Below, one piece after another: positions 11,650 through 24,495 of a stretch of 35,102 bases of DNA. The notes under the pieces are model-generated. The model was not told where the DNA came from, did no database searches, and worked only from the letters and a program-made list of their open reading frames with translations. Positions within the stretch are counted from its first letter, which is position 1, and each line of letters opens with the position of its first letter. The translations under genes and the position numbers were made by a program. Location: the NCBI GenBank assembly GCA_038078515.1, contig JBBTYX010000007.1:1-35102 (forward strand), read 5' to 3'. The stretch comes from Patescibacteria group bacterium (GTDB lineage Bacteria; Patescibacteriota; Minisyncoccia; 2-01-FULL-47-10; JBBTYX01).

Positions 11650-11721
11650 TGCCGGGTCGTCTAATGGTAGTGACATTGGGTTTTGGTCCCAAGGATCGGG
11701 GTTCGAGTCCCTGCCCGGCAG
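11650..11721 (+). tRNA. tRNA-Gln (anticodon UUG)
   Basis: I folded the cloverleaf by hand. The acceptor stem is TGCCGGG/CCCGGCA with U1-A72 and discriminator G73, both hallmarks of bacterial tRNA-Gln. The anticodon stem is TTGGG/CCCAA with loop TTTTGGT, giving anticodon TTG. The T arm is CGGGG-TTCGAGT-CCCTG. CCA is not encoded. Confidence 0.85.
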
Positions 11722-11790
11722 CAGTTTTTAATAAAACGAACTTTAAAGCGACGGCTGTTTGCGTTTCATTTATTCAGGTTTCGCTTTTTT

Positions 11791-11819
11791 AACAATCGGT
11801 AACTCGGTTACCGATTGTT
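11791..11819. repeat. Palindromic element copy 1 (13-bp arms AACAATCGGTAAC, centre TCG; 21-mer core at 11795-11815), followed by a T7 run
   Basis: An exact inverted repeat read directly from the sequence. Its position after tRNA-Gln and the following T-run make it terminator-like. Confidence 0.9.
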
Positions 11820-11839
11820 TTTTTAATCAGTAACTCGTA

Positions 11840-11864
11840 ATCGGTAACTCGGTTACCGATTGTT
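11840..11864. repeat. Palindromic element copy 2 (core 11840-11860), preceded by a half copy ATCAGTAACTCG at 11826-11837 and followed by T5
   Basis: The 21-mer is identical to copy 1, and the right flank TGTT is shared with copies 1 and 4. Confidence 0.9.
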
Positions 11865-11926
11865 TTTCTGCGTTTGAGTAATTATTGCTTAAATTGTTTA
11901 AATATGTCAAGATATGTAATATGTAT

Positions 11927-12496
11927 ATGGAAATTAAATCAGCTAAATTTATTAAAGGTATTATTGGCGCGGATGATATTTTATATGATGGCATTTTACA
12001 GATAGCGTTTTTTGGTCGTTCAAATGTAGGTAAATCAAGCGTAATAAACTCTTTAGTTAATCGCAAAAATTTAGTAAAATCAAGTAATCGCCCTGGCAAA
12101 ACTCAGCGATTAGATTTTTTTCTAATTAACAATAATACATACTTTGTTGATATACCCGGTTATGGTTTCGCAAAAATTCCAAAAAATAGAAGAGAGAAAC
12201 TTCGTAAACTTATTTTATGGTATTTGCTTTATTCAGAAGTTGAAAACAGAAAAATAGTTTTAATAATAGACGCTAAAGTGGGACCAACTTCATTTGATAT
12301 TGAAATGATAGAGCTTTTGCAAAAAAATAATGAAAATATTATAATAATAGCTAATAAAATAGATAAGTTAAAAAAAAATGATATAAAAAAACAAATACAA
12401 TCTATTATTCAAGAGATCAAAAACGACAATGTAATTCCATATTCTGCTAAAACAAAACAGGGCAGGGAAGAATTATTATTAAAAATATTTGAATAA
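11927..12496 (+). CDS. engB: Ribosome-biogenesis GTPase EngB/YsxC/YihA
   Basis: G1 motif GRSNVGKSS is followed by NRPGKTQ (G2 region), DIPGYG (G3) and NKIDK (G4). The ATG at 11927 (or 11921) is preferred to the TTG at 11885 in the ORF track. Confidence 0.85.
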   Translation: MEIKSAKFIKGIIGADDILYDGILQIAFFGRSNVGKSSVINSLVNRKNLVKSSNRPGKTQRLDFFLINNNTYFVDIPGYGFAKIPKNRREKLRKLILWYLLYSEVENRKIVLIIDAKVGPTSFDIEMIELLQKNNENIIIIANKIDKLKKNDIKKQIQSIIQEIKNDNVIPYSAKTKQGREELLLKIFE

Positions 12497-12505
12497 TTTT
12501 AAATT

Positions 12506-13699
12506 ATGAGCCCTATTAAATTTAAAATTGAAAAAAAATTAAAAGGAGCATTGGGTAGAGCAGGGAAATTAAGCACGCCTAATGGAGATATTTTAACTCC
12601 AGCTTTTGTAACTGTGGGTACTAAAGCAACTGTAAAATCGCTTTCGCCTGAACAAGTGGCAAATTTAGGAGCGCAAGTTATTTTAGCAAATACTTATCAT
12701 TTATATTTACAGCCGGGAGATAAAATAATAAAAAAAGCTGGCGGTCTCTGTAAATTTATTAATTGGAAAGGTCCAACAATGACAGATTCTGGTGGGTTTC
12801 AAGTGTTTTCATTAGGCGAGGCAATGGGCTCAAGCGTAAGTAAAATCGCAAGTGGCAAACAATCGGTAACCGAGTTACCGATAAATAAGAGAAAAGAAAA
12901 ATTGGCTAAGATTGATGAAAACGGAGTTAAATTTACATCGCCAATTGACGGAAGTTCGCATTATTTTACGCCCGAGAAATCAATTGAAATTCAACATAAT
13001 ATTGGAGCTGATATGATATTTGCTTTTGACGAATGCACTTCGTCGCAAGCAAGTTATGAATACCAAATAAAAGCAATGGAGCGCACACACAGATGGGCTA
13101 AGCGATGTATTGATTATCATAAAAAATCTAAAAATAGGGAAAAACAAGCTTTATTTGGTATTGTTCAAGGCGGGAAATTTAGCAATTTGCGTAAAAAAAG
13201 CGCGCAAATAATTGCCAGTATGCCATTTGACGGCTTTGGTATTGGCGGTTCATTTATTAAAGAAGATATAGACGCGTCAGTTTACTTAGTTAATAAAATT
13301 TTACCAGAGGACAAACCCCGTCATCTTTTAGGAATAGGAGAGCCCATTGATTTATTTGGCGGAGTAGAAAAAGGAGTGGATTTATTTGACTGCGTCGCGC
13401 CAACAAGAATTGCAAGAAATGGAACTCTATATACAAAAAAAGGCAAAATAAATATTTTTAACGCAAAATATAAACAAGATTTTAAACCAATAGAAAAAGA
13501 CTGCGCTTGTTATACTTGTAAAAATTATACAAAAGCTTATATCGCGCATCTTTTTCGCGCTAAAGAAATATTTGCTGCAACACTCGCGTCAATTCACAAT
13601 CTTTACTTCATAGTTAACCTTGTTTCTCAAATTCGCGAATCAATTTTAAATAATAATTTTTACGAATTCAAAAAAGATTTTTTAAAACATTACTTATAG
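12506..13699 (+). CDS. tgt: Queuine/guanine tRNA-ribosyltransferase (Tgt)
   Basis: Present are TPAFVTVGT, TDSGGFQVFSLG, FAFDECTS, LLGIGEP and the zinc site CACYTCKNYTKAYIAHL (CxCxxC...H). It carries palindromic element copy 3 in frame. Confidence 0.9.
   Translation: MSPIKFKIEKKLKGALGRAGKLSTPNGDILTPAFVTVGTKATVKSLSPEQVANLGAQVILANTYHLYLQPGDKIIKKAGGLCKFINWKGPTMTDSGGFQVFSLGEAMGSSVSKIASGKQSVTELPINKRKEKLAKIDENGVKFTSPIDGSSHYFTPEKSIEIQHNIGADMIFAFDECTSSQASYEYQIKAMERTHRWAKRCIDYHKKSKNREKQALFGIVQGGKFSNLRKKSAQIIASMPFDGFGIGGSFIKEDIDASVYLVNKILPEDKPRHLLGIGEPIDLFGGVEKGVDLFDCVAPTRIARNGTLYTKKGKINIFNAKYKQDFKPIEKDCACYTCKNYTKAYIAHLFRAKEIFAATLASIHNLYFIVNLVSQIRESILNNNFYEFKKDFLKHYL
12862..12882. repeat. Palindromic element copy 3 (centre CGA on + strand), inside tgt, translated as QSVTELPI
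   Basis: It is the exact 21-mer in reverse complement relative to copies 1, 2 and 4-6. The left flank AAACA is shared with copy 4 in sense orientation. Confidence 0.9.
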
Positions 13700-13709
13700 A
13701 AAAAATTAT

Positions 13710-13738
13710 TTGACAAAAATAATTTTTCGTATTAAAAT
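13710..13738 (+). promoter_or_regulatory. Consensus sigma70 promoter TTGACA-N17-TAAAAT. The yqeY ATG begins 7 nt after the -10, predicting a leaderless mRNA.
   Basis: TTGACA at 13710-13715, 17-nt spacer, TAAAAT at 13733-13738, ATG at 13745, no SD. Confidence 0.55.
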
Positions 13739-13744
13739 AGATAT

Positions 13745-14197
13745 ATGACGATTAAAGATCAAATTTTTGAAGATTTAAAACAAGCAATGAAAATGCGGGA
13801 AGTTGATAAGGTAACTGTTTTACGCACTATAAATTCAGCTATAAAAAATAAAGAAATAGAATTAAATAAACGAGAAAATGGTCTTAATGACGAAGAAACA
13901 ATATCTGTAATTGCCAAAGAAGCTAAAAAACGAAAAGAAGCGATTTTTGAATATCAAAAATGCAATAGAGAAGAATTATCGCAAAAAGAAGAAAAGGAAT
14001 TGAAGATATTGCAAAAATATATTCCAAAGGAAATGACTGAACAAGAAATAATAAATGAAGTGGATAAAACAATAAAAGAATTAAATCCTAATGGAATAAA
14101 GGATTTTGGTAGAGTAATGCAGGCTGTGATGGCTAAATTAAAAAACAGAGCAGACGGCGCGTTAGTTAATAAAATTATTAAAGAAAAGTTAAATTAA
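13745..14197 (+). CDS. yqeY: GatB/YqeY-domain protein
   Basis: The length and pattern are typical of YqeY: an N-terminal L..AMK....D...V.R......K, and a C-terminal GIKDFGRVMQAVMAKLKNRADGALVNKIIKEKL. Confidence 0.8.
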   Translation: MTIKDQIFEDLKQAMKMREVDKVTVLRTINSAIKNKEIELNKRENGLNDEETISVIAKEAKKRKEAIFEYQKCNREELSQKEEKELKILQKYIPKEMTEQEIINEVDKTIKELNPNGIKDFGRVMQAVMAKLKNRADGALVNKIIKEKLN

Positions 14198-14227
14198 ATA
14201 TTTAATTTCTCTTTAATAGTTCTTTAT

Positions 14228-14398
14228 AGCGCGACGCAAGAAATATAAGGTACCCTCCACGCCTTATAAACCCCACTGATGTACTTGCGTCGCGCGCTAA
14301 AAATACAACAAATGGCAGAGAACCTAGTACCAATCTTCCAAATGATGATCTCTCCTTTCAACATCATTAGAAGGTGGTTCTCTGTCAAGTCTTTTTTT
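14228..14398 (+). ncRNA. Candidate structured small RNA of unknown family: two long GC-rich hairpins and a downstream T7 run
   Basis: Hairpin 1 has a 12-bp GC-rich stem GCGCGACGCAAG/CTTGCGTCGCGC (14229-14240 / 14284-14295). It encloses an inner stem TATAAGG/CCTTATA with loop TACCCTCCACG. Hairpin 2 has an outer stem GGCAGAGAACC/GGTTCTCTGTC (14314-14324 / 14376-14386), an inner 6-bp stem and a 7-bp stem, and a 14-nt loop ATCTCTCCTTTCAA. A T7 run lies at 14392-14398. The region is locally GC-rich in an AT-rich genome and has no ORF of 60 aa or more. The strand is inferred from the T-run only. Confidence 0.4.
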
Positions 14399-14470
14399 AT
14401 CCTTTTATAATATAGAAGGGTAATTTCATTTTAGGCAAAGAGAAAAACAAGGTTCTATGTAATAATTTTA

Positions 14471-14500
14471 TTGACAAATGAGCTAATTTTAGTTCATAAT
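14471..14500 (+). promoter_or_regulatory. Consensus sigma70 promoter TTGACA-N18-CATAAT. The tsaC ATG begins 7 nt after the -10, predicting a leaderless mRNA.
   Basis: TTGACA at 14471-14476, CATAAT at 14495-14500, ATG at 14507. The geometry is the same as the yqeY promoter. Confidence 0.55.
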
Positions 14501-14506
14501 TAAGAA

Positions 14507-15109
14507 ATGGAACAAATCATTAAAAAAATAATTGAAATACTAAGCAAAGACGGAGTTGTTGTTTTGCCGACTGATACTGTTTATGGCATTTGCTGTTCAT
14601 TTGAAAGCATAAAAGCATATCAAAAAATATTAGCTATAAAAGGAAGAGAAGCTGAAAAACTTTTGCCTGTATTTGTTCATTGTATGCAAAAGGCAAAAGA
14701 GATTGCGTATATAAATAAAAAACAAGAGCAAATATTAAATGTGTTTTGGCCTGGGAGTATTACTTGTATTTTAAAATCAAAAATAAAAAATAAATTTAAC
14801 TTTCTTAACACAATTGCTATTCGTATTCCAGATAATAATTTATTGTTAAAAATTTTATTGGAATTTAAAAAACCTCTTTTTCAAACATCTGCTAATTTAT
14901 CCGGATTAAATCCAGCTAAAAATGTAGATGAGATACAAAAACAGTTTAAAGATAATTTTGTAAAGCCGGATCTTATTATTGATGGAGGAAATTTATCAAA
15001 AGACTTAAATTCAACAATAGTTGATTTAACTAAAAAACCTTATCGTATATTGCGTCAAGGGAAAAACTATATATTAGTCCAAAAAACCTTGGAACGAATA
15101 TCCTCGTAA
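14507..15109 (+). CDS. tsaC: L-threonylcarbamoyladenylate synthase, YrdC/TsaC type (t6A biosynthesis)
   Basis: YrdC-domain pattern: VVVLPTDTVYGICC ... IKGREAEKLLPVFV ... WPGSIT ... IRIP ... QTSANLSG. About 200 aa with no Sua5 C-domain. Confidence 0.8.
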   Translation: MEQIIKKIIEILSKDGVVVLPTDTVYGICCSFESIKAYQKILAIKGREAEKLLPVFVHCMQKAKEIAYINKKQEQILNVFWPGSITCILKSKIKNKFNFLNTIAIRIPDNNLLLKILLEFKKPLFQTSANLSGLNPAKNVDEIQKQFKDNFVKPDLIIDGGNLSKDLNSTIVDLTKKPYRILRQGKNYILVQKTLERISS

Positions 15110-15895
15110 AAAATCGCTCCAACTCATATCTTTTCGTCCTTCGGGCCTAATTTTTTTAATTTTAATTTCATTATTTTGAACTTCTGCTTCTAATATTTGT
15201 ATTCTTATTATTTTTGATTTTTGATTTTTTGTTTTAATTTTTGCATAAGAAAAAGCTATAGGCCATTCTATATAAGCTCTTATTTTTCTCTCTATTATTT
15301 CTGGAGATTCTTTCCAATTTATTTTAGCGTTTTCTTTTTTAATTAAATTTGTATAGGTTGCTTTATTTTCGTCTTGTTTAACAATCGGTAACTCGGTTAC
15401 CGATTGTTTTAATTTTTCTAAAATATCAATTAGCAAGTTAGCTCCTAAATTAAATAAAATTTCACCCAATTTTTTTGTTGTGTATTTTTTATCAATAATA
15501 AATTCTCTTTGAATTAAAATAGGTCCAGCGTCTATTTTTTCTGTCATTTTAATAATTGTAACGCCGGCAATTTTATCACCATTTATGATTGTTTCTTGCA
15601 ATGGCGATGGCCCCCTGTATTTTGGCAAAAGAGAAGGATGAATATTTAAAATACCATATTTAAACTTCTTAATAATATTTTTAGGAATTATTTTTCCATA
15701 TGAAGCAACAATGCCAAGAGAGTACTTATCATTAAGTAAATGTTTACTATTTTTGCCAATAATTAAATCAGGCTTGAAATTGTAGCTAGTAAAGTTAGCG
15801 TCCAATTCCGTTTCATTAAGTCTATTTAAAATTATTTTTGAATATTCGCTATCGCCAAAAAATACTAATTTTTTTATTATTTGCTTATTGTTCAT
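15074..15895 (-). CDS. fmt: Methionyl-tRNA formyltransferase (short form)
   Basis: VASYGKIIP ... ILNIHPSLLPKYRGPSPLQ ... GVTIIKMTEKIDAGPIL is followed by a C-terminal domain containing YIEWPIAF. It sits downstream of def in the conserved priA-def-fmt order and carries palindromic element copy 4 in frame. Confidence 0.85.
   Translation of the reverse strand: MNNKQIIKKLVFFGDSEYSKIILNRLNETELDANFTSYNFKPDLIIGKNSKHLLNDKYSLGIVASYGKIIPKNIIKKFKYGILNIHPSLLPKYRGPSPLQETIINGDKIAGVTIIKMTEKIDAGPILIQREFIIDKKYTTKKLGEILFNLGANLLIDILEKLKQSVTELPIVKQDENKATYTNLIKKENAKINWKESPEIIERKIRAYIEWPIAFSYAKIKTKNQKSKIIRIQILEAEVQNNEIKIKKIRPEGRKDMSWSDFLRGYSFQGFLD
15380..15408. repeat. Palindromic element copy 4 (13-bp arms; core 15384-15404), inside fmt, translated as KQSVTELPIV on the minus strand
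   Basis: The 29-mer is identical to copy 1. Confidence 0.9.
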
Positions 15896-16418
15896 TGTTT
15901 TTTGTTTTTATTTCTTTCCATTTATCAGAAATTAAAATACCTTGCAAATGGTCATATTCGTGTTGTAATACCTTTGCTAAAAATCCTTTTGCATGCAACT
16001 TAAATTCTTTTCCTTCTAAATTTTTAGCTTTGATATTTACGCGACAAGCGCGTCTCACAAAGCCATATTTTTTAGGTATAGACAAACATCCTTCTCCTTC
16101 GTCATTATATGGTTTAGATATTTTACTTATAATCGGATTTATAAAAACATATCCATTTTTAATATCAATATTATCAATTTTATCAAATTTATATTTAGAT
16201 ACGCCTTTATGCGATTCATCTTTAAACGCGATACTATCAACAACAAATAGCTGTATATTTTTTCCTACTTGCGGCGCGGCTAATCCAACGCCCTTCCATT
16301 CGCGCATTTTAATAAACATATCTAAAACAAGCTCCTTTACATCATGAGTTATATGTTCTATTTTCTTGTTTTCATTTCTTAATATTGGATTTTTTTTACC
16401 TATTGTTAATGTGAGCAT
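15885..16418 (-). CDS. def: Peptide deformylase
   Basis: All three signature motifs are present: GVGLAAPQVG, EGCLSIP and QHEYDHLQG. Confidence 0.92.
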   Translation of the reverse strand: MLTLTIGKKNPILRNENKKIEHITHDVKELVLDMFIKMREWKGVGLAAPQVGKNIQLFVVDSIAFKDESHKGVSKYKFDKIDNIDIKNGYVFINPIISKISKPYNDEGEGCLSIPKKYGFVRRACRVNIKAKNLEGKEFKLHAKGFLAKVLQHEYDHLQGILISDKWKEIKTKNNEQ

Positions 16419-16422
16419 AATT

Positions 16423-18180
16423 CTATTCTAAAATATCAACTTCCCAATCAAAAGGAATAAATTCAAGTAAATATTTTTTTACATCTCTGCTTCCAATTTT
16501 AATAATAATTTCATAACGAAACTTTCCCTTTAATTTATATATTAAAGCTGGCATAAAATCAAATATTTTTGTATTTAATCCTTTTTTATTTTTAATATAT
16601 TCCAATTTTTTATTTAAAACCTTTGCTTCGTTTATGGCGCTTACTTCGTTTTTATGGGAAAAAGTTAATTTAATCATTTCTGTAAACGGCGGATAATTTA
16701 AAGCTTTTCTTTCTTTTAATTCATTCTCATAAAATAATTTATAATCATTTTTTAAAATAGCGTTGTAAATAATATTTTCCTTATCATATGTTTGTATAGC
16801 AAAATCATTTTTAGCAAAATTTTTTAACCGCCATAAATTAAAAAAAGTATAAAGAAACGCGTTATAATCAGGAAAATTAAGCTCTAAATCTGGCGCAAGA
16901 GCTATTACGCAATCAAATTCTAAATTTTTAAATTTAAAAATTATTGAAGTTGTTATTGTAAAATCTGCATTATTTATATCTAAAATTTGTTCTTCTAAAT
17001 CTTTTTTTACATCTGAGTCCAGTCTAACCACTTTGACAAAGGGCATTATTTCTTTTATTTTTTGTTCAACTTGTTGCGTGCCAAAACCAAAAAGCCCTAA
17101 ATTATGATAACCGCATTTATCGCATATTTTAGGAGTCTCTGTTTTATACAAACAATAATGACAAAGAAGATAAGGTAATTCAAATTTTTTATGATAAGTA
17201 AGAGTAACGCTACAATTTTTACATTGAGGCATAAAACCGCAATCTTTACAAACAACTAAACGAGAATACCCTCTGCGATTTATATAAAGTAAAACTTTTT
17301 TATTTTCTTTAAACGATTTATTTAAAATATCAATAGTCTCTCTTATAAAAATATCTCCGTATGGCAAATTTATTAAATCTATTATTTTAGTTTTATTATT
17401 TTTATTATTTTCACTCCGCACTCTGTTTGCGGAGTGAAAACTTATATTTTTTTTCCAAGAAAAAAGAGATGGGATAGAGCAGTGATTTTCAATTTTAGCG
17501 CCAGTTAACTCTGCTAATTTTTTTGCAACTGAAACAGCGCTATAATGCGGTTTTTGATCCCAAGATAAATGCGATTGATCAAGTTCTTCATATATTATAA
17601 TTTTTTTTAAATTAATATATGGAGCAAAAAGAGCAGACTTAGTGCCTTTTACTTCGCTAATATTGCCATTTCTAATTTCATTAAACAAATCAAATTCTTT
17701 TTTTAATCCCAATTTAGATGTAATATCAATTTCATAATCGGTAACTCGGTTACCGATATATTTCATAGGATATAAATATAGCGTCTGTTCAACCTTTTCA
17801 CTATCGGTAACTCGGTTACCGATAGTGAATTTGTCTGGATTTTTCAGTAAATATTTTGGTATAAACTTTTTTAAAACAAGTCCAAAAGATGTCCAATAAT
17901 ACTGGCTTATCCATTTAGCTAATTCAATTTGATATGAAAATAACACAGGTTCGTCAATAATTGAATATTCAATAGGCTTTAGCGCAAAAGTAGAGCTTCT
18001 AATAATGCTTTTTTTATGTTTAATTGTATCGCATTCTAAAACAATTGCAGGATATTTTTTATTGCGCATTTTTATCTCAACCAATGATCCGATATTTAAT
18101 TTTCGCGCGCTAAAAAAACTCATTTCTTGCGGATTAGGACGAGGAATATTAGTTAACGGAGTAGCCTTTATTAAAAACAT
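16423..18180 (-). CDS. priA: Primosomal protein N' (PriA) homologue with degenerate helicase motifs
   Basis: Retained features: an N-terminal DNA-binding-like region, LAKWISQYYW, GTKSALFAPY, VLLYINRRGYSRLVVCKDCG, an 8-Cys zinc-binding region (CKDCGFMPQCKNC...CHYC...CDKCG), a GFGTQQVEQ block and the C-terminal domain. Synteny is priA-def-fmt. No GxGKT is present anywhere, and DEEH is replaced by YEEL. The start is placed at MFLIKATP (18180) rather than the track start 18213. Confidence 0.8.
   Translation of the reverse strand: MFLIKATPLTNIPRPNPQEMSFFSARKLNIGSLVEIKMRNKKYPAIVLECDTIKHKKSIIRSSTFALKPIEYSIIDEPVLFSYQIELAKWISQYYWTSFGLVLKKFIPKYLLKNPDKFTIGNRVTDSEKVEQTLYLYPMKYIGNRVTDYEIDITSKLGLKKEFDLFNEIRNGNISEVKGTKSALFAPYINLKKIIIYEELDQSHLSWDQKPHYSAVSVAKKLAELTGAKIENHCSIPSLFSWKKNISFHSANRVRSENNKNNKTKIIDLINLPYGDIFIRETIDILNKSFKENKKVLLYINRRGYSRLVVCKDCGFMPQCKNCSVTLTYHKKFELPYLLCHYCLYKTETPKICDKCGYHNLGLFGFGTQQVEQKIKEIMPFVKVVRLDSDVKKDLEEQILDINNADFTITTSIIFKFKNLEFDCVIALAPDLELNFPDYNAFLYTFFNLWRLKNFAKNDFAIQTYDKENIIYNAILKNDYKLFYENELKERKALNYPPFTEMIKLTFSHKNEVSAINEAKVLNKKLEYIKNKKGLNTKIFDFMPALIYKLKGKFRYEIIIKIGSRDVKKYLLEFIPFDWEVDILE
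17408..17440. repeat. A second, different perfect palindrome inside priA (13-bp arms TTTTCACTCCGCA / TGCGGAGTGAAAA, 7-nt loop)
   Basis: Read directly from the sequence. It is translated as FHSANRVRSEN on the minus strand. I did not see it elsewhere in the window. Confidence 0.8.
17737..17757. repeat. Palindromic element copy 5, inside priA, translated as IGNRVTD
   Basis: Exact 21-mer. Confidence 0.9.
17803..17823. repeat. Palindromic element copy 6, inside priA, translated as IGNRVTD. The local palindrome extends to CACTATCGG...CCGATAGTG (17800-17826).
   Basis: Exact 21-mer, located 45 bp from copy 5. Confidence 0.9.
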
Positions 18181-18320
18181 ATAACATAACATATAACACA
18201 TAACACATAGCAATTCAATGCATTGTGATAATTTTTTTGCTCAAAATACAAAAAAAGTGTAAAATGGATTAAATGTATAATCTATAATTAAGATGTTTAA
18301 AAATTTTGTCATTAAAAATT

Positions 18321-19037
18321 ATGCAAGTATTTGGTATTAAAATTCGTCCTATATTAGAGAAAAAAGTTTTAAAACTTAATTTTAAGAAACAACTTTTTTT
18401 AATTACGCTTAATCCGGAAATAATGCTCAAGGGTTATTATAGCGCTAATTTTAAACAAATTTTAAATTCTTCTGCTTTTCATACTATTGACGGCATAGGC
18501 CTTCAGATAATAGCGCGTTTTTTATATAAAAAAAAAATAAAGCGCGCAACAGGGTCAGATTTATTTACAAAACTCTTAAATAAAATTAATATAGAGAATA
18601 ACCACAAAATATTTTTATACGGAGCAAGTGAAAATAGTTTAAATAAAGCGCTAAATCGTATCCGCTACAATTATCCCAATATAATTATTAACGGTATTCA
18701 TGGCGATATACCTAAAAAAGAAGCTGTTAAAATGATAAACCAAAAAAAACCAGAGATTCTTCTTGTAGCTCTTGGCGCGCCAAAACAGGAAGTATTTTTA
18801 TATAATTATTTATTTAAAATGCCTTCTGTGAAACTTGCTATTGGAATTGGAGGAGGAATTGATTCATTTGCGCATCCATACCTCAGGGGCCCCTTATTTA
18901 TGCGTAAAATTGGTTTAGAATGGTTTTGGAGACTTTTAGTAGAGCCGTGGCGATTGCCAAGAATATTTCGCGCCACAATTATTTTTCCAATTAAAGCAAT
19001 AAAAGAAAAAATGCTGTTTAAACAAGCAATAAAATGA
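18321..19037 (+). CDS. tagA: WecG/TagA/CpsF-family glycosyltransferase (N-acetylmannosaminyltransferase-like)
   Basis: Family pattern: LITLNPE ... DGIGL ... LYGASE ... ILLVALGAPKQEVFL ... IGIGGGIDSFA ... GLEWFWRLLVEPWRLPRI. The ATG at 18321 is preferred to the TTG at 18306. The TGA stop overlaps the murC ATG (ATGA). Confidence 0.8.
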   Translation: MQVFGIKIRPILEKKVLKLNFKKQLFLITLNPEIMLKGYYSANFKQILNSSAFHTIDGIGLQIIARFLYKKKIKRATGSDLFTKLLNKINIENNHKIFLYGASENSLNKALNRIRYNYPNIIINGIHGDIPKKEAVKMINQKKPEILLVALGAPKQEVFLYNYLFKMPSVKLAIGIGGGIDSFAHPYLRGPLFMRKIGLEWFWRLLVEPWRLPRIFRATIIFPIKAIKEKMLFKQAIK

Positions 19038-20302
19038 TAAACTTAAATACTAAAAAACATATTTATATTGTTGGCATAAAAGGCGCTGGAGTATCGGGAT
19101 TAGCTCAAATTTTAAAAGGATTAGGGCATAATGTATTTGGTTCTGATATTTCTGATAAATTTTTTACTGACAAAATTCTAAAAAAAGAAAATATTAAAAT
19201 TAAAACGCCTTTTGCAATTAAAAATATTTCTCAAAATATTGATTTAGCTATTTCTTCAAGCACTTACATAGGTAGCAATAATATTGAAATAAAAGAGCTT
19301 GAAAAACGACATATTCCAATTTTTGGATATGCAAATGCTTTGGGAAATATTTTTAATCAATATTACGGAATAGCAATAGCAGGAACTCATGGCAAAAGCA
19401 CTGTAAGCGCAATGATTGCTTATGTTTTAGAACAAGCGAAATTAGACCCTTTTGCTTTAATAGGAGCCGAATTACTGAATTGGAAATCAAATGCCCGTAT
19501 TCCTCAAAATATTACTCCTAACTCTATATTTGTTATAGAAGCTGACGAATATAAAGAACAATTTTTAAATTATAAGCCCAATATAATAGTTTTAACTGAT
19601 ATTGATTTTGATCATCCAGATTATTATAAAAATAAAAATGATTATAAAAAAGCATTTAAAAAATTCAATGATAATTTAAAAAAAGACGGTTCAATTATTA
19701 AAAATAATAAATTAGAAATTAGAGGGTATAATTTACAAATAATTGGCAAACATAATCAAAGAAACGCTAATTTAGCTTATTTAACTTGTAAAAAATTAAA
19801 TATCAAAGATAGCGTAATTAAAAAAGCGCTTTTTTTATTTAAAGGAACTCGCAGGCGTTTAGAAAAAATAGGAGAGTATAACGGTTCTATTATAATTGAC
19901 GATTACGCTCATCATCCAATAGAAATAAAAGCGTCTTTATTAGCTTTAAAAAAAGAATATCCAAATAAAGAATTGGTTGTGTTATTTCATCCACATACAT
20001 TTTCTCGCACTAAAAAATTTTTAAAAGAATTCGCTAAAAGTTTAACAGCGGCTGATAGAATTTATTTATTAGATATTTACTCATCAGCTCGTGAAGAAAA
20101 TTCAAATATCACATCAGATAATATAATACAAAACATTAAAAAAAACGCGGTAAATTTAAAAACAATAAAAAACGCTATAAAATTTTTAAAAAAAAATTTA
20201 TCGTCAAAACAAGTATTAGTAACAATGGGAGCGGGCGATGTTTGCAATGTGGCTTACGCTCTAATAAATCATAAAAAAATTAGAACCTCTAACAAATTCT
20301 AA
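19034..20302 (+). CDS. murC: UDP-N-acetylmuramate--L-alanine ligase
   Basis: IYIVGIKGAGVSGLAQIL (Rossmann-like N-domain), the Mur ligase P-loop IAGTHGKSTVSAM, DDYAHHPIEI, and a C-terminal domain. Confidence 0.9.
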   Translation: MINLNTKKHIYIVGIKGAGVSGLAQILKGLGHNVFGSDISDKFFTDKILKKENIKIKTPFAIKNISQNIDLAISSSTYIGSNNIEIKELEKRHIPIFGYANALGNIFNQYYGIAIAGTHGKSTVSAMIAYVLEQAKLDPFALIGAELLNWKSNARIPQNITPNSIFVIEADEYKEQFLNYKPNIIVLTDIDFDHPDYYKNKNDYKKAFKKFNDNLKKDGSIIKNNKLEIRGYNLQIIGKHNQRNANLAYLTCKKLNIKDSVIKKALFLFKGTRRRLEKIGEYNGSIIIDDYAHHPIEIKASLLALKKEYPNKELVVLFHPHTFSRTKKFLKEFAKSLTAADRIYLLDIYSSAREENSNITSDNIIQNIKKNAVNLKTIKNAIKFLKKNLSSKQVLVTMGAGDVCNVAYALINHKKIRTSNKF

Positions 20303-20410
20303 ATATGCGTTCACTGCGTTCAATACATTGCTTCGCAATAACACTTTGTTCAGTAAGAATTTGTTGAGAACCTTGTTTTTTAAATTATTAAATTTAAAAA
20401 ATTAAATAAT

Positions 20411-20626
20411 ATGCAAATTGTTGTAAAAACAAATTCAAAACAACATAAATTAGTTAAAATTGATGAAAATAATTTTATAGCTTACATTAAAACATTGCCA
20501 AAACAAGGAAAAGCAAATAAAGAATTAGTTGAATTGTTGTCAGAAAAATTTAAAATTCCTAAAAACAGAATATGGATAAAATATGGTTTGAAATCAAAAA
20601 ACAAAATTATTAAAATTATTGATTAA
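20411..20626 (+). CDS. DUF167 (YggU-like) small protein
   Basis: At 71 aa it has the DUF167-like core LPKQGKANKELVELLSEKFKIPKNRIWIKYGLKSKNKII. Confidence 0.6.
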   Translation: MQIVVKTNSKQHKLVKIDENNFIAYIKTLPKQGKANKELVELLSEKFKIPKNRIWIKYGLKSKNKIIKIID

Positions 20627-20640
20627 AAAAATATTAAAAT

Positions 20641-21762
20641 ATGAATATTGGTATTGATTGTCATTATATACATAGCAAACCGCGAGTAGCTCAATATGTT
20701 ATAAGCTTACTTTTATCGTGGAAAAATAATGGCTATTTTCGCACGCGGGAAAATAGAATTTTTTGTTATTTTAACAAAAAAGACGATTTAATAGATAGTT
20801 TTCCTAAAGAAGTAGAAATTATTATAAGTAAAAGCAAAAATAATACTTTATTTGAACAAATAGCGCTTCCAATGGAAATATCAAAAGACAAATTAGATGT
20901 ATTTTTTTCTCCTTATCTTTTACTTCCATTTTTTTCATTTAAAAAATCAATTATTACCATATATGACATTTCTTTTGTGGAATATCCAAAAGAATCAAGT
21001 TGGAGAAATTTCTTTGATTATAGATATCGTAAATATTTATCAAAAAGAGCTGCTAAATCAGCAAGCGCCATTATTACGCCAACAGAGTTTACTAAAAAAG
21101 AACTAATGAGGTTATGGGGCATTTCAGAAAAAAAAATTTATGTTTTACCTTTGGGTAGTAATATTAATTTCCATAAAACACAGCTTTTAAATTTTCCGCG
21201 CCAAGAGTTTATTTTATTTAAAGGTTCTATTTTAACAAGAAGGTATCTGCCGCAAATAATAAAAATTTTTTATGAAATAGCAAAAAATCATCCTACGCTT
21301 CGTTTTATAATAGTTGGTAAAGATTTAACTAATCCTTCGCAAAATATAGATAATCTAATAGAAAAAGTAAATTATAATTTAATAAGAAAAGCTATCACTC
21401 GCTTTGACAAAGCTTCGGAACAAGATATGCTGACTTTTTATTCCCAAGCAAAAGCATTTATTTATCTATCGGAATATGAAGGATTTTGTCTACCTATAAT
21501 AGAGGCAATGAATTCAGGTTTGCCAATACTCGCTAATAAAAACAAATGTCTGGAAGAAATAGCTGGCAATGCGGCGCTATATATTGATAATCCTAATAAT
21601 GAAGCTGAACTTTATATTAAATTAAATCGTATTTTAACTGATACTAATTTGCGACAAGAATTAAAAGAACGAGGAATACGCCAAGCGCAAAAATTTTCAT
21701 GGCAACAAAGCGCTAAAAAAACTTGGGAAATAATGCAAATGATAGGCCATGATGAACAATAA
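20641..21762 (+). CDS. Glycosyltransferase family 4 (GT-B, group 1)
   Basis: The C-terminal half carries the EX7E-type motif (SEYEGFCLPIIEAMNSGLPILA). Size and domain order are typical of GT4. Confidence 0.8.
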   Translation: MNIGIDCHYIHSKPRVAQYVISLLLSWKNNGYFRTRENRIFCYFNKKDDLIDSFPKEVEIIISKSKNNTLFEQIALPMEISKDKLDVFFSPYLLLPFFSFKKSIITIYDISFVEYPKESSWRNFFDYRYRKYLSKRAAKSASAIITPTEFTKKELMRLWGISEKKIYVLPLGSNINFHKTQLLNFPRQEFILFKGSILTRRYLPQIIKIFYEIAKNHPTLRFIIVGKDLTNPSQNIDNLIEKVNYNLIRKAITRFDKASEQDMLTFYSQAKAFIYLSEYEGFCLPIIEAMNSGLPILANKNKCLEEIAGNAALYIDNPNNEAELYIKLNRILTDTNLRQELKERGIRQAQKFSWQQSAKKTWEIMQMIGHDEQ

Positions 21763-21781
21763 CATTTAATTCTAATAAATT

Positions 21782-22654
21782 GTGCCAAAAATCACAATAA
21801 TAATAATAAATTATAATACTGAAAAAGAAACAATAAAGTGTTTAAAATCGCTTCAAAAATTAAATTACAAAAATTTTGAAGTAATTTTAATTGATAATGC
21901 TTCTAATAATTTTAATAAAATAGAGATTTGGATAAAAAAATACAAAAACCAAAATAAAAATATAAAAATATACAAGCTAAAATATAATAATGGTTTTACC
22001 GGAGGCGTAAATTTTGGAATTAAAAAAACTTTAAAAAATAAAACAGATTATGTATGGCTTTTAAATAATGATACTATTGTTGACAAAAATTGTTTAACAG
22101 AACTTGTAAAAACAGCTGAACAGGAAAATTCTGCAATTACTGGCAATAAAATATTTTCTCTGTCTAAAAAACAAACAAAATTAAAAACCAATAAATCTAA
22201 TTTAGAGTTTAACAGCGGTAGCTTTGATTGGATTAGAGGATCTTATCCAAAAGGCGCGATAAAAAAACCTAAATGGATTACTGGAACTTCAATGCTTATA
22301 AAAAAAGAAGTATTTGAAATTATTGGCTTATTTGATGAAAGATTTTTTCTTTATTATGAAGATGTGGATTTTTGTTTTTGCGCGAGAAAAAAGGGACTTA
22401 AATTATCTATATCAGAAAAAGCTTTATTATGGCATAAAAAATCGTCCTCAACAAAAATACTTGGCAAAGATCTAATTTTATATTATCATTATCGTAACTT
22501 AATGCTTTTAACAAAAAAACACGCTCCAAAAACAATAAAATATATAATATATCTTTGGGGTTATTTTTTAATTTTTCGTTATTTTTTTTCTAAGCATATA
22601 AAATACGCTATTTATGATTTTTATCATAATAGATTCGGAAAATTTAATCACTAA
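21782..22654 (+). CDS. Glycosyltransferase family 2 (GT-A)
   Basis: ITIIIINYNTEKETIKCLKSL...VILIDNASN, followed by NNGFTGGVNFG, then LNNDT and the later YYEDVDFC motif. GTG start. Confidence 0.8.
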   Translation: MPKITIIIINYNTEKETIKCLKSLQKLNYKNFEVILIDNASNNFNKIEIWIKKYKNQNKNIKIYKLKYNNGFTGGVNFGIKKTLKNKTDYVWLLNNDTIVDKNCLTELVKTAEQENSAITGNKIFSLSKKQTKLKTNKSNLEFNSGSFDWIRGSYPKGAIKKPKWITGTSMLIKKEVFEIIGLFDERFFLYYEDVDFCFCARKKGLKLSISEKALLWHKKSSSTKILGKDLILYYHYRNLMLLTKKHAPKTIKYIIYLWGYFLIFRYFFSKHIKYAIYDFYHNRFGKFNH

Positions 22655-22679
22655 GTATTAAAAATCTCACTAAGATATT

Positions 22680-24356
22680 ATGTTTCAACAACAAACAATA
22701 AAATGCCAGAATTGTAAAAGCGAATTCACGATTGAACCAGAAGATTTTGAATTTTATTCTAAAATACAAGTTCCTTCTCCTACATTTTGTCTTGAGTGCA
22801 GATTTAAAAGAAGAGCTGTCTGGCGAAATGAAACCACTCTTTACACTGGCAGAAAATGCGATAAATGTGGCAAATCTGTTATTTCTATGTATAATCCTAA
22901 TTCTCCATACACTGTCTATTGCTATGAGTGTTACAATTCTGATTCTTGGGATCCAAAAGATTATGCAATGGATTATAACAAAGACAAGCCATTTTTTGAA
23001 CAGTTAAATGATTTAATAAAAAAGGTTCCGAAAATAACAACGCATATTACTTCTGGCGCAGGGCAGAATGTGAATAGTAAATATACAAATATGGCAGGGA
23101 GTAATAAGAATAGCTATATGCTTTTCAACGGTGGATCAAATGAAAATGTAATGTACTCTCGCGGACCGTTTAAGTGCATGGATTCAATTGATTTATATTT
23201 AGCAACTGAAGTTGAGCTTGGTTATGAATTAGTAAATACTCACAAATCAAACAAAATAATCTGGAGTAAAAATTCACGCGCTTGCTTGGATAGCTCATTT
23301 CTTTTGAATTGCAGTGGATGTACTAGTTGTTTTGGCTGTGTTAATTTACACAACAAAAGTTACCATTTTCTTAATGAACTGCTAAGTAAGGAAGAATATC
23401 AAAAAAAAGTAAATAAACTCATAGGAAGTTATTTAAAAATAGAAAAATTCAGGAAAGAATTTGAAAATTTTGTTCTTAAATTTCCACACCGAGAAAACAA
23501 TAATTTGAAAACAGTGAATAGTGTCGGCGATTACCTGACAGAATGTAAGAATTTATTTAATTGTTTTGAAGTGACAAAGAGTGAAGATTGCAAGAATATG
23601 TTTGCCACTAAAATGAGTAAAGACAGTTACGATTGTATTGGCTACGGCTATAATGCTGAATTACTTTTAGAATGTATTACAGTAGGTTATTCAAGTCGTA
23701 TTATTGGGTCAAGCAGTATTGAAAATGGTTATAATTTGGAATATTGCCTCTTTTTAATGAAAAATAATAAAAATTGTTTTGGTTGTGACGCGTTACGAAA
23801 TTCTGAGTATTGTATTTTAAACAAGCAGTATAGTAAGGAAGAATACGAAAAATTGCGTGAGAAAATTATTAATGAATTAAAAGAAAAAAATATATACGGC
23901 CTTTTTATACCATCGGAATTTTCACCCTTTGCTTACAATGAAACGATTGCTCAAGACAATATGCCACTTTCTAAAGATGAAGCCATTTCACAAGGTTTTC
24001 GTTGGGAAGACAATATACAAAAAACAACTGGTAAAGAGACCATGAAATCAGAACAAATTCCAGATCATATAAAAGATGTTAAAAACAATATTGTTAAAGA
24101 AATATTAGTTTGTATAGATTGTAATAGAAATTATAAAATTATACAGGAAGAACTTGATTTTTATCGCAAAATGGTTTTGCCACTTCCGCGCAAATGTTTT
24201 AATTGCCGGCATACTGATCGTATTCATCGCCGCGGGTTAATGAAATTCTGGAGCCGAAAATGCGCTAAGTGCGATAAAATCATCATGACATCTTTTGCAC
24301 CGGAACGTCCTGAGATTGTTTACTGCGAGAAATGCTATCAAGTTGAGGTTGCTTAA
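22680..24356 (+). CDS. Cys-rich protein of unknown function: duplicated zinc-ribbon modules at both termini flanking an internally duplicated Cys/Asn/Ser-rich repeat region
   Basis: The N-terminal module is CQNC...FEFYSKIQVPSPTFCLECRFKRR...CDKCGK...VYCYECY. The C-terminal module is CIDCN...LDFYRKMVLPLPRKCFNCRHTDRIHRR...CAKCDK...VYCEKCY. The two central halves end in NKSYHFLNELLSKEEY and SEYCILNKQYSKEEY. The long intact ORF is clearly coding. Confidence 0.6.
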   Translation: MFQQQTIKCQNCKSEFTIEPEDFEFYSKIQVPSPTFCLECRFKRRAVWRNETTLYTGRKCDKCGKSVISMYNPNSPYTVYCYECYNSDSWDPKDYAMDYNKDKPFFEQLNDLIKKVPKITTHITSGAGQNVNSKYTNMAGSNKNSYMLFNGGSNENVMYSRGPFKCMDSIDLYLATEVELGYELVNTHKSNKIIWSKNSRACLDSSFLLNCSGCTSCFGCVNLHNKSYHFLNELLSKEEYQKKVNKLIGSYLKIEKFRKEFENFVLKFPHRENNNLKTVNSVGDYLTECKNLFNCFEVTKSEDCKNMFATKMSKDSYDCIGYGYNAELLLECITVGYSSRIIGSSSIENGYNLEYCLFLMKNNKNCFGCDALRNSEYCILNKQYSKEEYEKLREKIINELKEKNIYGLFIPSEFSPFAYNETIAQDNMPLSKDEAISQGFRWEDNIQKTTGKETMKSEQIPDHIKDVKNNIVKEILVCIDCNRNYKIIQEELDFYRKMVLPLPRKCFNCRHTDRIHRRGLMKFWSRKCAKCDKIIMTSFAPERPEIVYCEKCYQVEVA

Positions 24357-24369
24357 TTAAAAACATTTT

Positions 24370-24410
24370 TTACATTCGGTAATAATCGGTAACCGAGTTA
24401 CCGAATGTAA
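24370..24410. repeat. Palindromic element copy 7 (20/21 core at 24385-24405, centre CGA) nested in a second 13-bp inverted repeat TTACATTCGGTAA/TTACCGAATGTAA. A degenerate copy follows at 24412-24429.
   Basis: Read directly from the sequence. It starts 14 nt after the stop codon of the Cys-rich gene. Confidence 0.85.
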
Positions 24411-24495
24411 AAGTAACAGAGTTATCAATTAAAAAACACGCCTGATAGGCGGAATAAAATAAAAAATAATACTAAAAATATTAAATTAATAAATT

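Follow-up and report, generated by a model that had tools for sequence, protein, structure and literature searches.

Short palindromic repeats are among the least understood parts of bacterial genomes. Repetitive extragenic palindromic (REP) sequences and REPINs are multicopy palindromic units of 20-40 bp that often occur in close pairs or clusters; intragenic REPs, frequently in replication, repair and tRNA-modification genes and including the short Rickettsia palindromic elements (RPEs) RPE-4 and RPE-6, have been documented, and several families per genome are the rule for REP-like repeats (PMC3733652). REPIN populations are uniform in the company of their RAYT (REP-associated tyrosine transposase) and decay without it (bioRxiv 10.1101/2021.07.10.451892). 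Here we describe a family of perfect palindromes, family 1, in 35,102 nucleotides of contig JBBTYX010000007.1 (the window, by which the whole stretch of DNA analysed is meant), whose source is a Patescibacteria metagenome-assembled genome (MAG) from Hainich groundwater. The unit is a 21-mer, ATCGGTAACTCGGTTACCGAT, and ten full copies, against none expected, were found in 52.6 kb of one contig of one genome, namely the window plus its flanks; this is the scope of all copy counts and gene searches below.

In size (21-29 bp), copy number and close pairing, family 1 resembles REPs and REPINs; it further resembles them in having terminator-like copies 3' of genes, in sharing its genome with another family, in placing some copies inside replication, repair and tRNA-modification genes (PMC3733652), and in its long persistence, uniform in some lineages and decayed in others (10.1101/2021.07.10.451892). 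The contrast between the uniform family here and the decayed copies in relatives parallels that between REPINs with and without RAYT. Family 1 differs in having no unpaired GTAG or CGTC tag at the hairpin end, as defined for REPs (PMC3733652); each copy is flanked by AACA/TGTT or by variable sequence, with GTAG or CGTC at none. REP palindromes are imperfect and lie mainly in extragenic DNA downstream of open reading frames (ORFs), whereas those of family 1 are perfect and seven of ten are intragenic, and no RAYT is present in the 52.6 kb. The first-pass annotation of this DNA had set the element apart from REPs on the ground that it is not confined to extragenic DNA, but the documented intragenic REPs (PMC3733652) leave no real distinction on that point.

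Two further systems invite comparison. Like the RPEs (RPE-1 and the short RPE-4 and RPE-6), family 1 consists of palindromes that a reduced genome carries both in non-coding DNA and, in frame, within housekeeping genes unrelated to one another, and the encoded peptides lie in tolerant parts of the proteins; however, RPE-1 measures 100-150 bp and adds tens of residues, whereas family 1 is, as had already been pointed out, the shorter element and adds none, and it belongs to another phylum and bears no sequence relation to RPEs. The palindromic GC clusters known from AT-rich mitochondrial genomes, that of yeast among them, are likewise short, G+C-richer palindromes dispersed in AT-rich DNA, which encode no enzyme, whose arms merge and shuffle, and whose spread is suspected to be driven by recombination (PMC4478555); GC clusters, however, are organellar rather than bacterial, are mostly intergenic, and have reported target-site duplications, none of which was seen for family 1. 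The kind of element is thus known already from intragenic REPs; family 1 departs from it in being a tagless, perfect, mostly intragenic unit that adds no length and whose uniform copies on old sites point to overwriting rather than replicative insertion.

On the + strand of the window, exact copies of the 21-mer start at 11795, 11840, 15384, 17737 and 17803; a sixth lies in the reverse orientation at 12862, and a seventh copy, matching at 20 of 21 positions, at 24385. This re-scan agrees with all seven positions of the first-pass annotation, and no match arose in 100 dinucleotide shuffles, even with three mismatches allowed. Three further copies, with one to three mismatches each, and one partial copy lie outside the window on the same contig. 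The 29-mers at 11791-11819 and 15380-15408 do have one and the same sequence, with arms of 13 bp, and the degenerate pieces near 11826 and 24412 are real, as both earlier statements had it. Read with the TCG centre, ATCGGTAACTCGGTTACCGAT is followed by TGTT(T) in seven of ten copies, and is preceded by AACA in two and by TACA in a third, so that the conserved unit, (AACA)ATCGGTAACTCGGTTACCGAT-TGTT, is asymmetric and at least 26 nt long. Since loop and TGTT flank are common to seven of the ten, the copies are likely to derive from one another and not from independent palindrome formation. No half-site stands on its own in the 52.6 kb; each occurrence of a 7-9-mer falls within a palindrome or an adjoining partial copy. 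The unit has 48% G+C, compared with 28.5% for the genome. Partial arms, duplicated arms, close pairs and arrays were all seen.

Downstream of a tRNA-Gln(UUG) gene (11650..11722, +; called by ARAGORN and matched by the Rfam tRNA model), two intergenic copies follow in close succession. One is the full 29-bp form, AACAATCGGTAAC-TCG-GTTACCGATTGTT (11791..11819, +), a terminator-like hairpin of 13 pairs followed by a T-run; a truncated left half, ATCaGTAACTCGtA (11826..11839, +), abuts the other (11837..11863, +), which comprises the exact 21-mer at 11840-11860 followed by TGTTTTTCT, is also terminator-like, and lies about 60 bp upstream of engB. The remaining intergenic copy of the window is composite (24370..24412, -): the 20/21 unit at 24385-24405 sits inside an outer palindrome with 13-bp arms, TTACATTCGGTAA...TTACCGAATGTAA, which includes a duplicated left arm, and a degenerate copy, AGTAAC-AGA-GTTATC (AGTAACAGAGTTATC), follows at 24412..24426 (+). 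This copy and its degenerate companions lie at the 3' end of a 558-aa ORF (22680-24356) with many CxxC zinc-ribbon motifs and only a weak treble-clef match in Pfam; the ORF is missing from the syntenic relative L041, in which sodN directly follows the GT2 gene. REPIN dimers pair their units in inverted orientation. The neighbouring pairs 11795/11840 and 17737/17803 are in direct orientation, and one inverted neighbour occurs within the murI-murD array described below.

Seven of the ten full copies lie in ORFs: one in tgt, one in fmt, two in priA and three in murI-murD. The tgt copy (12857..12882, -) has the sense strand AAACAATCGGTAACCGAGTTACCGAT, read as KQSVTELPI, and the translation across it is GKQSVTELPINK; the 29-bp fmt copy (15380..15408, +; gene on the - strand) is read as KQSVTELPIV, within LKQSVTELPIVK, in an inter-domain linker. 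In priA, which is also on the - strand, the copy at 17737..17757 (+) gives YIGNRVTDY within KYIGNRVTDYE, and that at 17797..17829 (+), whose arms are extended to 15 bp (TTCACT...AGTGAA), gives FTIGNRVTDSE. All four copies keep their frames open, are read in two different frames and share one orientation, the sense strand reading CGA at the centre in each, precisely as the first-pass annotation described; the third frame of the unit would give TAA. Beyond the window, the linker of a 693-aa MurI-MurD fusion holds three copies and the partial copy, with NKQSVTELPN read twice. Here murI (glutamate racemase) and murD occupy a single 693-aa ORF (contig L033, 5938-8019), and the palindrome array may have bridged two formerly separate genes.

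Several codons within the unit are rare in this genome (TCG 7.6%, ACC 8.7%, ATC 4.3%, CGA 12.5%). Two reading frames and rare codons indicate that the identity belongs to the DNA and not to the peptide; together with the non-coding copies and the different peptides found in orthologues, they bear out the earlier view that selection or spread acts on nucleotides. Conservation at the level of the protein was accordingly ruled out, on the two frames, the rare codons and the different peptides of the orthologues.

Relatives were compared through short contigs with syntenic DNA from four lineages: L044/L045 (Tgt 88% and PriA 87% identical to those of the window), L060/L066 (Tgt 85%, PriA 72%), L040-L043 (Tgt 84%, PriA approximately 70%), and the outgroup L058 (Tgt 72%). 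In L044, L045, L060, L066 and L040, different palindromes, always with a 3-nt centre, occupy the orthologous tgt, first priA, second priA and fmt sites. At the tgt site, where the window has ATCGGTAAC-CGA-GTTACCGAT, L044 has ATCGGTGGC-TCA-GCCACCGA and L060 the perfect GAATTTTCAAGAAC-TAA-GTTCTTGAAAATTC; L040 holds a decayed sequence of the L060 type, and the outgroup L058 has no palindrome. At the first priA site (17797..17829), compensatory changes separate TTTACTATTGGAAGG-TCA-ACTTCCAATAGTAAA of L040 from TTCACTATCGGTAAC-CGA-GTTACCGATAGTGAA of the window, and the versions of L045 and L066 are imperfect. The second priA site and the fmt site gave the same pattern: the copy at 17737..17757 has orthologous quasi-palindromes in L045, L040 and L066, and a decayed homologue lies at the same place in fmt of L040.

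The arms of these palindromes change together. Among eight copies from relatives, 6.5 of 9 positions pair between the two arms of the same copy, compared with 4.07 of 9 when arms were swapped between sites, and the observed pairing sum was reached by only 1 of 20000 permutations. Where both sides of a pair have changed relative to the window, 18 of 26 pairs remain Watson-Crick. Imperfect pairs comprise 5 G.T, 4 A.C and 18 others, and perfect copies contain no wobble pairs; the lack of G.T enrichment favours symmetry of the DNA over pairing of RNA. Since the geometry is kept while the sequence changes, the evidence points to a hairpin-based process on DNA; selection of an RNA helix, or a protein that reads the sequence, fits less well. 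At the first priA site of L045 (2650-2700, the 87% relative), the left arm is duplicated, ACTATTGGAAA then TACTATGGGAGAT, for a net gain of three residues relative to the window, which resembles the partial-arm duplications at window positions 11826 and 24374. L040 (the 84% relative) carries an intergenic family of its own, the palindrome TTTTTAATGATTACATTAAAAA, seven times and mostly about 82 bp apart, at two loci (1840-2028 and 18385-18619) for which the spacers of the window are short or different.

The host proteins have gained no length. When Tgt was aligned with 17 homologues, the palindrome fell in a hypervariable loop, which measures 16-17 aa in the clade and, in outgroups that are about 72% identical, 14-21 aa; the PriA and Fmt copies lie in variable linkers, and these proteins are no longer than their orthologues. 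The in-frame insertion suggested at first thus finds no support in Tgt, PriA or Fmt, and neither a target-site duplication nor an insertion polymorphism was seen at the sites compared. Recent in-frame insertion was rejected on the absence of any length gain together with the occupied sites in relatives. With divergent palindromes already present at these positions in relatives, the copies are long-standing residents whose sequence has been overwritten or homogenised, not new insertions. PriA of the window (16423-18213) gave Pfam matches to the 3'-DNA-binding, Cys-rich and C-terminal domains only; its helicase core gave no match at E <= 0.001, as in close relatives, although Helicase_C is listed for some distant ones.

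Between sites, copies in the window are identical at 21 of 21 positions, whereas the between-site identity in relatives is 9-13 of 21. The relatives' copies match the window unit at 8-14 of 21 positions; orthologous copies share 9.5-13.5 and non-orthologous copies 10.1 of 21. By our own estimate, composition alone predicts about 5.8 of 21, and since all of these values lie above it, all copies are taken to be members of a single old family. The idea that each lineage undergoes concerted evolution was rejected, in that paralogue identity in the relatives is no higher than orthologue or non-orthologue identity; among the lineages compared, homogenisation is confined to the window genome. The consensus of the relatives, ATCGGaAAT-TCA-ACTTcCGAA, matches the window in its outer arms, but the inner arms of the window (TAAC/GTTA) and its CGA centre differ from that consensus, are fixed at every site, and appear by this sequence comparison to be derived. 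Such parallel multi-nucleotide change at four or more loci without change of length requires inter-locus sequence transfer or a strong sequence-specific drive. Within the murI-murD array, two strains that are 99.9% identical differ at four adjacent bases, GAAATAACGG and GAATATTCGG (L033 6740-6750 and L034 3604-3614, respectively), and the L034 version repeats the neighbouring junction sequence; this cluster is the type of event expected from templated conversion.

On the strand with the TCG centre, the hairpin is followed by a T-tract, which matches the pattern of an intrinsic terminator, and five + strand copies match that pattern. A hairpin and T-run on the same strand and 3' of a transcription unit, as required of an intrinsic terminator, were found only at 11791-11819 and 11837-11863; these two copies probably serve as terminators of tRNA-Gln, co-opted for that purpose, and the corresponding site of L040 has an unrelated canonical terminator. 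The RNA of 11780-11870 folds with z = -7.95 and that of the composite copy (24370..24412) at -24.2 kcal/mol (z = -6.6); hairpins overall range from -11 to -35 kcal/mol and z from -3.8 to -8. Within genes, the T-tract is antisense in six of seven copies (p ~0.125, two-sided). A sense-oriented copy would end the transcript of its host gene, and such copies may therefore have been purged.

A second palindrome family, family 2, has the form TTCACTCCGCA-CTCTGTT-TGCGGAGTGAA (beginning CACTCCGCA), with arms of 11-13 bp and a 7-nt loop. One copy, TTTTCACTCCGCA-CTCTGTT-TGCGGAGTGAAAA, lies in frame in priA (17408..17440, +) and reads SFHSANRVRSEN, and an imperfect version occupies this position in L045; two intergenic copies at L033 162-192 and 217-245 lie in opposite orientations upstream of an Asp/Asn-type (class II, PF00152) tRNA-synthetase gene. 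Family 2 shows the same intergenic and in-frame pattern as family 1.

The copies are genuine. The window is 99.97-99.99% identical to part of CAYHUG010000001.1 (73.9 kb), from MAG GCA_964359795.1 ('Patescibacteria group bacterium'), and is also matched by contigs from independent assemblies of Hainich groundwater samples (Hain_H52, ERR3858128/9); its gene content is of the Parcubacteria type (tgt, fmt, def, priA, mur genes, aminoacyl-tRNA synthetases, glycosyltransferases). The copies are base-for-base identical in the 73.9-kb NCBI contig, in two ENA assemblies, each from a different filter fraction, and in Logan assemblies, which were made from separate runs. The repeats fragment short-read assemblies: both ends of Logan contig L065, equivalent to window 15381-17438, fall exactly within palindromes, its start in that of family 2 and its end in the family-1 copy of fmt, as expected where true repeats break the assembly graph, and ENA contig L038 stops about 500 bp short of the tRNA-Gln palindromes. 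An origin of the copies in assembly, chimera formation or amplification can claim one end artefact on this very contig, its inverted first 55 bases, but the agreement of the NCBI, ENA and Logan assemblies, the frames that stay open through the copies, and the presence of homologous palindromes at these positions in relatives sampled elsewhere and by other studies reduce its probability almost to nothing, and effectively refute the artefact or chimera which the first-pass annotation had named as fatal to its case. At the window start, bases 1-55 repeat, in reverse complement, a segment that other assemblies place about 115-170 bp upstream (L037 7974-8028), and collinearity with those assemblies begins at position 44; this looks like a fold-back artefact at a contig end.

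Public collections were scanned with ATCGGTAACNNNGTTACCGAT, which leaves the centre free and fixes 18 bases; the source genome and its family-bearing relatives were not among the genome and metagenome sets scanned. In 596 Gb from 185,579 species-representative genomes, 10 scattered single hits were found, none with a TCG or CGA centre and no family among them; this count is close to the roughly 9 matches that, by our own arithmetic, chance alone would give for 18 fixed bases in that much DNA. The JGI metagenomes gave 21 scattered single hits, again with neither centre and no family, and viral contigs gave single sites only, one per contig, whose centres were not inspected. The 21-mer is thus lineage-specific, being over-represented here relative to the other genomes scanned. 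A BLAST search of phages and plasmids with the intergenic pair found nothing; Rfam recognised tRNA only, and no family matched the palindromes; a 40-column profile of the in-frame peptides, tuned to E ~0.1-1 per single copy, yielded one candidate and no match.

The earlier observation that no transposase or RAYT gene is present in the window holds and extends to the 52.6 kb, in whose unannotated ORFs Pfam revealed no transposase, HUH or RAYT domain; com and pilus genes were likewise absent from this region. The same search found a PD-(D/E)XK nuclease and an Avd-like four-helix protein, neither evidently linked to the repeats. The latter, a 124-aa PF05635 protein (23S rRNA intervening-sequence protein, Avd-like), is encoded at L033 2589-2963 between a D-Ala-D-Ala carboxypeptidase gene and mraY. 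An origin by retrohoming of the diversity-generating retroelement type, which the Avd-like gene had brought to mind, was rejected, with no reverse transcriptase or template repeat nearby. A literature search found no report of such short palindromic repeats in Patescibacteria.

The explanation that we favour, to which we give about an even chance, is that family 1 is an old, untagged, REP-like family of hairpin repeats, selfish or neutral in nature, whose arms correct each other, whose copies convert each other, which protein loops tolerate only where the T-tract is antisense, and two of whose members probably serve as tRNA-Gln terminators. The anatomy of the unit, its persistence in position, the compensatory evolution of the arms, the homogeneity, the lack of length gain and the orientation are observed; template switching, conversion between copies, use as terminators and the selfish or neutral character are inferred. 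The palindromes would have occupied the same genomic positions since before the clade diversified. Within a copy, the arms would correct each other by fold-back template switching on a minimal hairpin with a 3-nt loop, such that a change in one arm is copied to the other and the copies remain palindromic while their sequence drifts. Quasipalindrome template-switch mutagenesis is established, and makes imperfect inverted repeats perfect without change of length, leaving clustered complementary changes; it would fit both the compensatory evolution of the arms and the 4-nt strain variant, but it acts within one locus and cannot alone make ten distant loci identical. In the window lineage, copies would in addition overwrite each other, either by ectopic short-patch conversion or through a hairpin-specific enzyme acting in trans, and so leave one derived variant, with inner arms TAAC/GTTA and loop CGA, at every site. 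Genes would tolerate the unit only in variable surface loops and linkers, in one of its two stop-free frames, and with hairpin and T-tract antisense; in the sense orientation it would become an intrinsic terminator.

Several points weigh against this explanation. The orientation bias of six in seven is not significant by itself; the derived polarity rests on three relative lineages, two of them sisters, and the fmt relic of L040 has a centre, AGA/GAG, that is nearer the window type. No trans-acting enzyme, RAYT/IS200-type or other, was found among the genes of the 52.6 kb, and ectopic conversion between repeats of 21-29 bp that lie kilobases apart would have little homology to work with and has no demonstrated precedent here. 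Finally, some 26 nt perfectly conserved at all sites would follow equally from selection by a binding protein or an uptake receptor. A bolder version, which we regard as doubtful, holds that the family does not transpose at all and that a structure-guided 'overwriting' keeps perfect palindromes identical at fixed ancient positions, some of them within essential genes of an ultra-small genome, by hairpin cleavage with copy-templated repair or by the molecular drive of a self-recognition or uptake tag.

Uptake deserves weighing in its own right, as a signal for self-recognition comparable to the DNA uptake sequences (DUS) of Neisseria and the uptake signal sequences (USS) of Pasteurellaceae. Receptor bias and homologous recombination would fix copies of the motif in situ, with lineage dialects, and copies would appear as terminator hairpins and in those protein loops that are under weak constraint. 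The fixed positions, the constant lengths and the variable protein segments agree with this, as do copies that are identical within the genome and absent elsewhere, and intergenic copies that form terminators; DUS and USS too are species-specific and over-represented motifs, tolerated in ORFs without change of length and occurring as hairpin terminators. Lineages with uptake sequences have dialects of their own, and the parallel shift of all sites to a derived variant resembles a dialect switch. Patescibacteria depend on the scavenging of DNA and nucleotides, and DUS are enriched in genome-maintenance genes. Yet half-sites never occur alone here, only whole palindromes, whereas known DUS and USS are asymmetric cores of 9-12 nt that mostly stand singly; the density, approximately 0.2 per kb, falls below the roughly 1 per kb of known systems; and the shift would require at least seven coordinated substitutions per site. 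The palindromes of the relatives are site-specific and share no motif, a literature search found no link between uptake sequences and Patescibacteria, and a second, unrelated family of identical palindromes coexists in the same genome, which would be odd for an uptake signal or for a single binding protein. The DUS-like reading of the first-pass annotation is weakened by the missing single half-sites and by a second family that behaves alike, and we consider uptake unlikely. The operator proposed alongside it, a high-affinity site for a dimeric DNA-binding protein (an organiser of the ParB-parS, Noc or SlmA kind, or a global regulator), is slightly less probable again. Genic sites would be possible for such a protein, to which only the DNA sequence matters, and it would account for perfect dyad symmetry, an invariant centre, identical copies and tolerance of the unit in two frames. 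All ten copies fall within a 26-kb span of the 52.6 kb, although with each local pair counted as one locus, which leaves 6 loci, this grouping loses significance (p ~0.1, own arithmetic). The operator reading loses ground to the finding that arm sequence is free to change across lineages while the 3-nt centre and complementary arms are kept, which argues for a structure-based process; moreover, most copies lie outside promoter regions, no candidate binding protein stands beside the cluster, the truncated halves and duplicated arms are what repeat dynamics typically produce, and family 2 would demand a second protein.

Function as an RNA hairpin, whether as intrinsic terminator, insulator against antisense transcription, or mRNA-stabilising or processing hairpin, carries in our estimate the same small probability as the operator. 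It draws on the strong hairpins (-11 to -35 kcal/mol), on the five terminator-like + strand copies with a tRNA-Gln pair that replaces the unrelated terminator of L040, and on the compensatory arm changes at orthologous sites. Pairing, however, is purely Watson-Crick, with no G.U enrichment among the imperfect pairs, and the arms, perfectly paired over 9-15 bp, would fold as well from one strand as from the other. Why conserved hairpins should be needed in tgt, fmt, the murI-murD linker or, twice, priA is not evident; a hairpin function needs no sequence identity between sites, and no Rfam family matched.

The locus offers an unusually clean natural experiment, in that four lineages can be compared at four or more shared sites, and the comparison reveals long-lived palindromes in essential genes whose arms co-evolve and which in one lineage have become uniform without change in protein length. 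The 21-mer, which none of the scanned public collections of genomes and metagenomes contains, provides a simple marker with which to track the Hainich groundwater population. If the bolder version were true, REP-like sequences of bacteria would have a way of being maintained that has not been described for them. Should the homogenising step prove real, it would bear on what keeps REP-like families uniform, on how minimal genomes accommodate selfish or neutral DNA, and on how repeats of this sort break short-read assemblies of candidate-phyla genomes.

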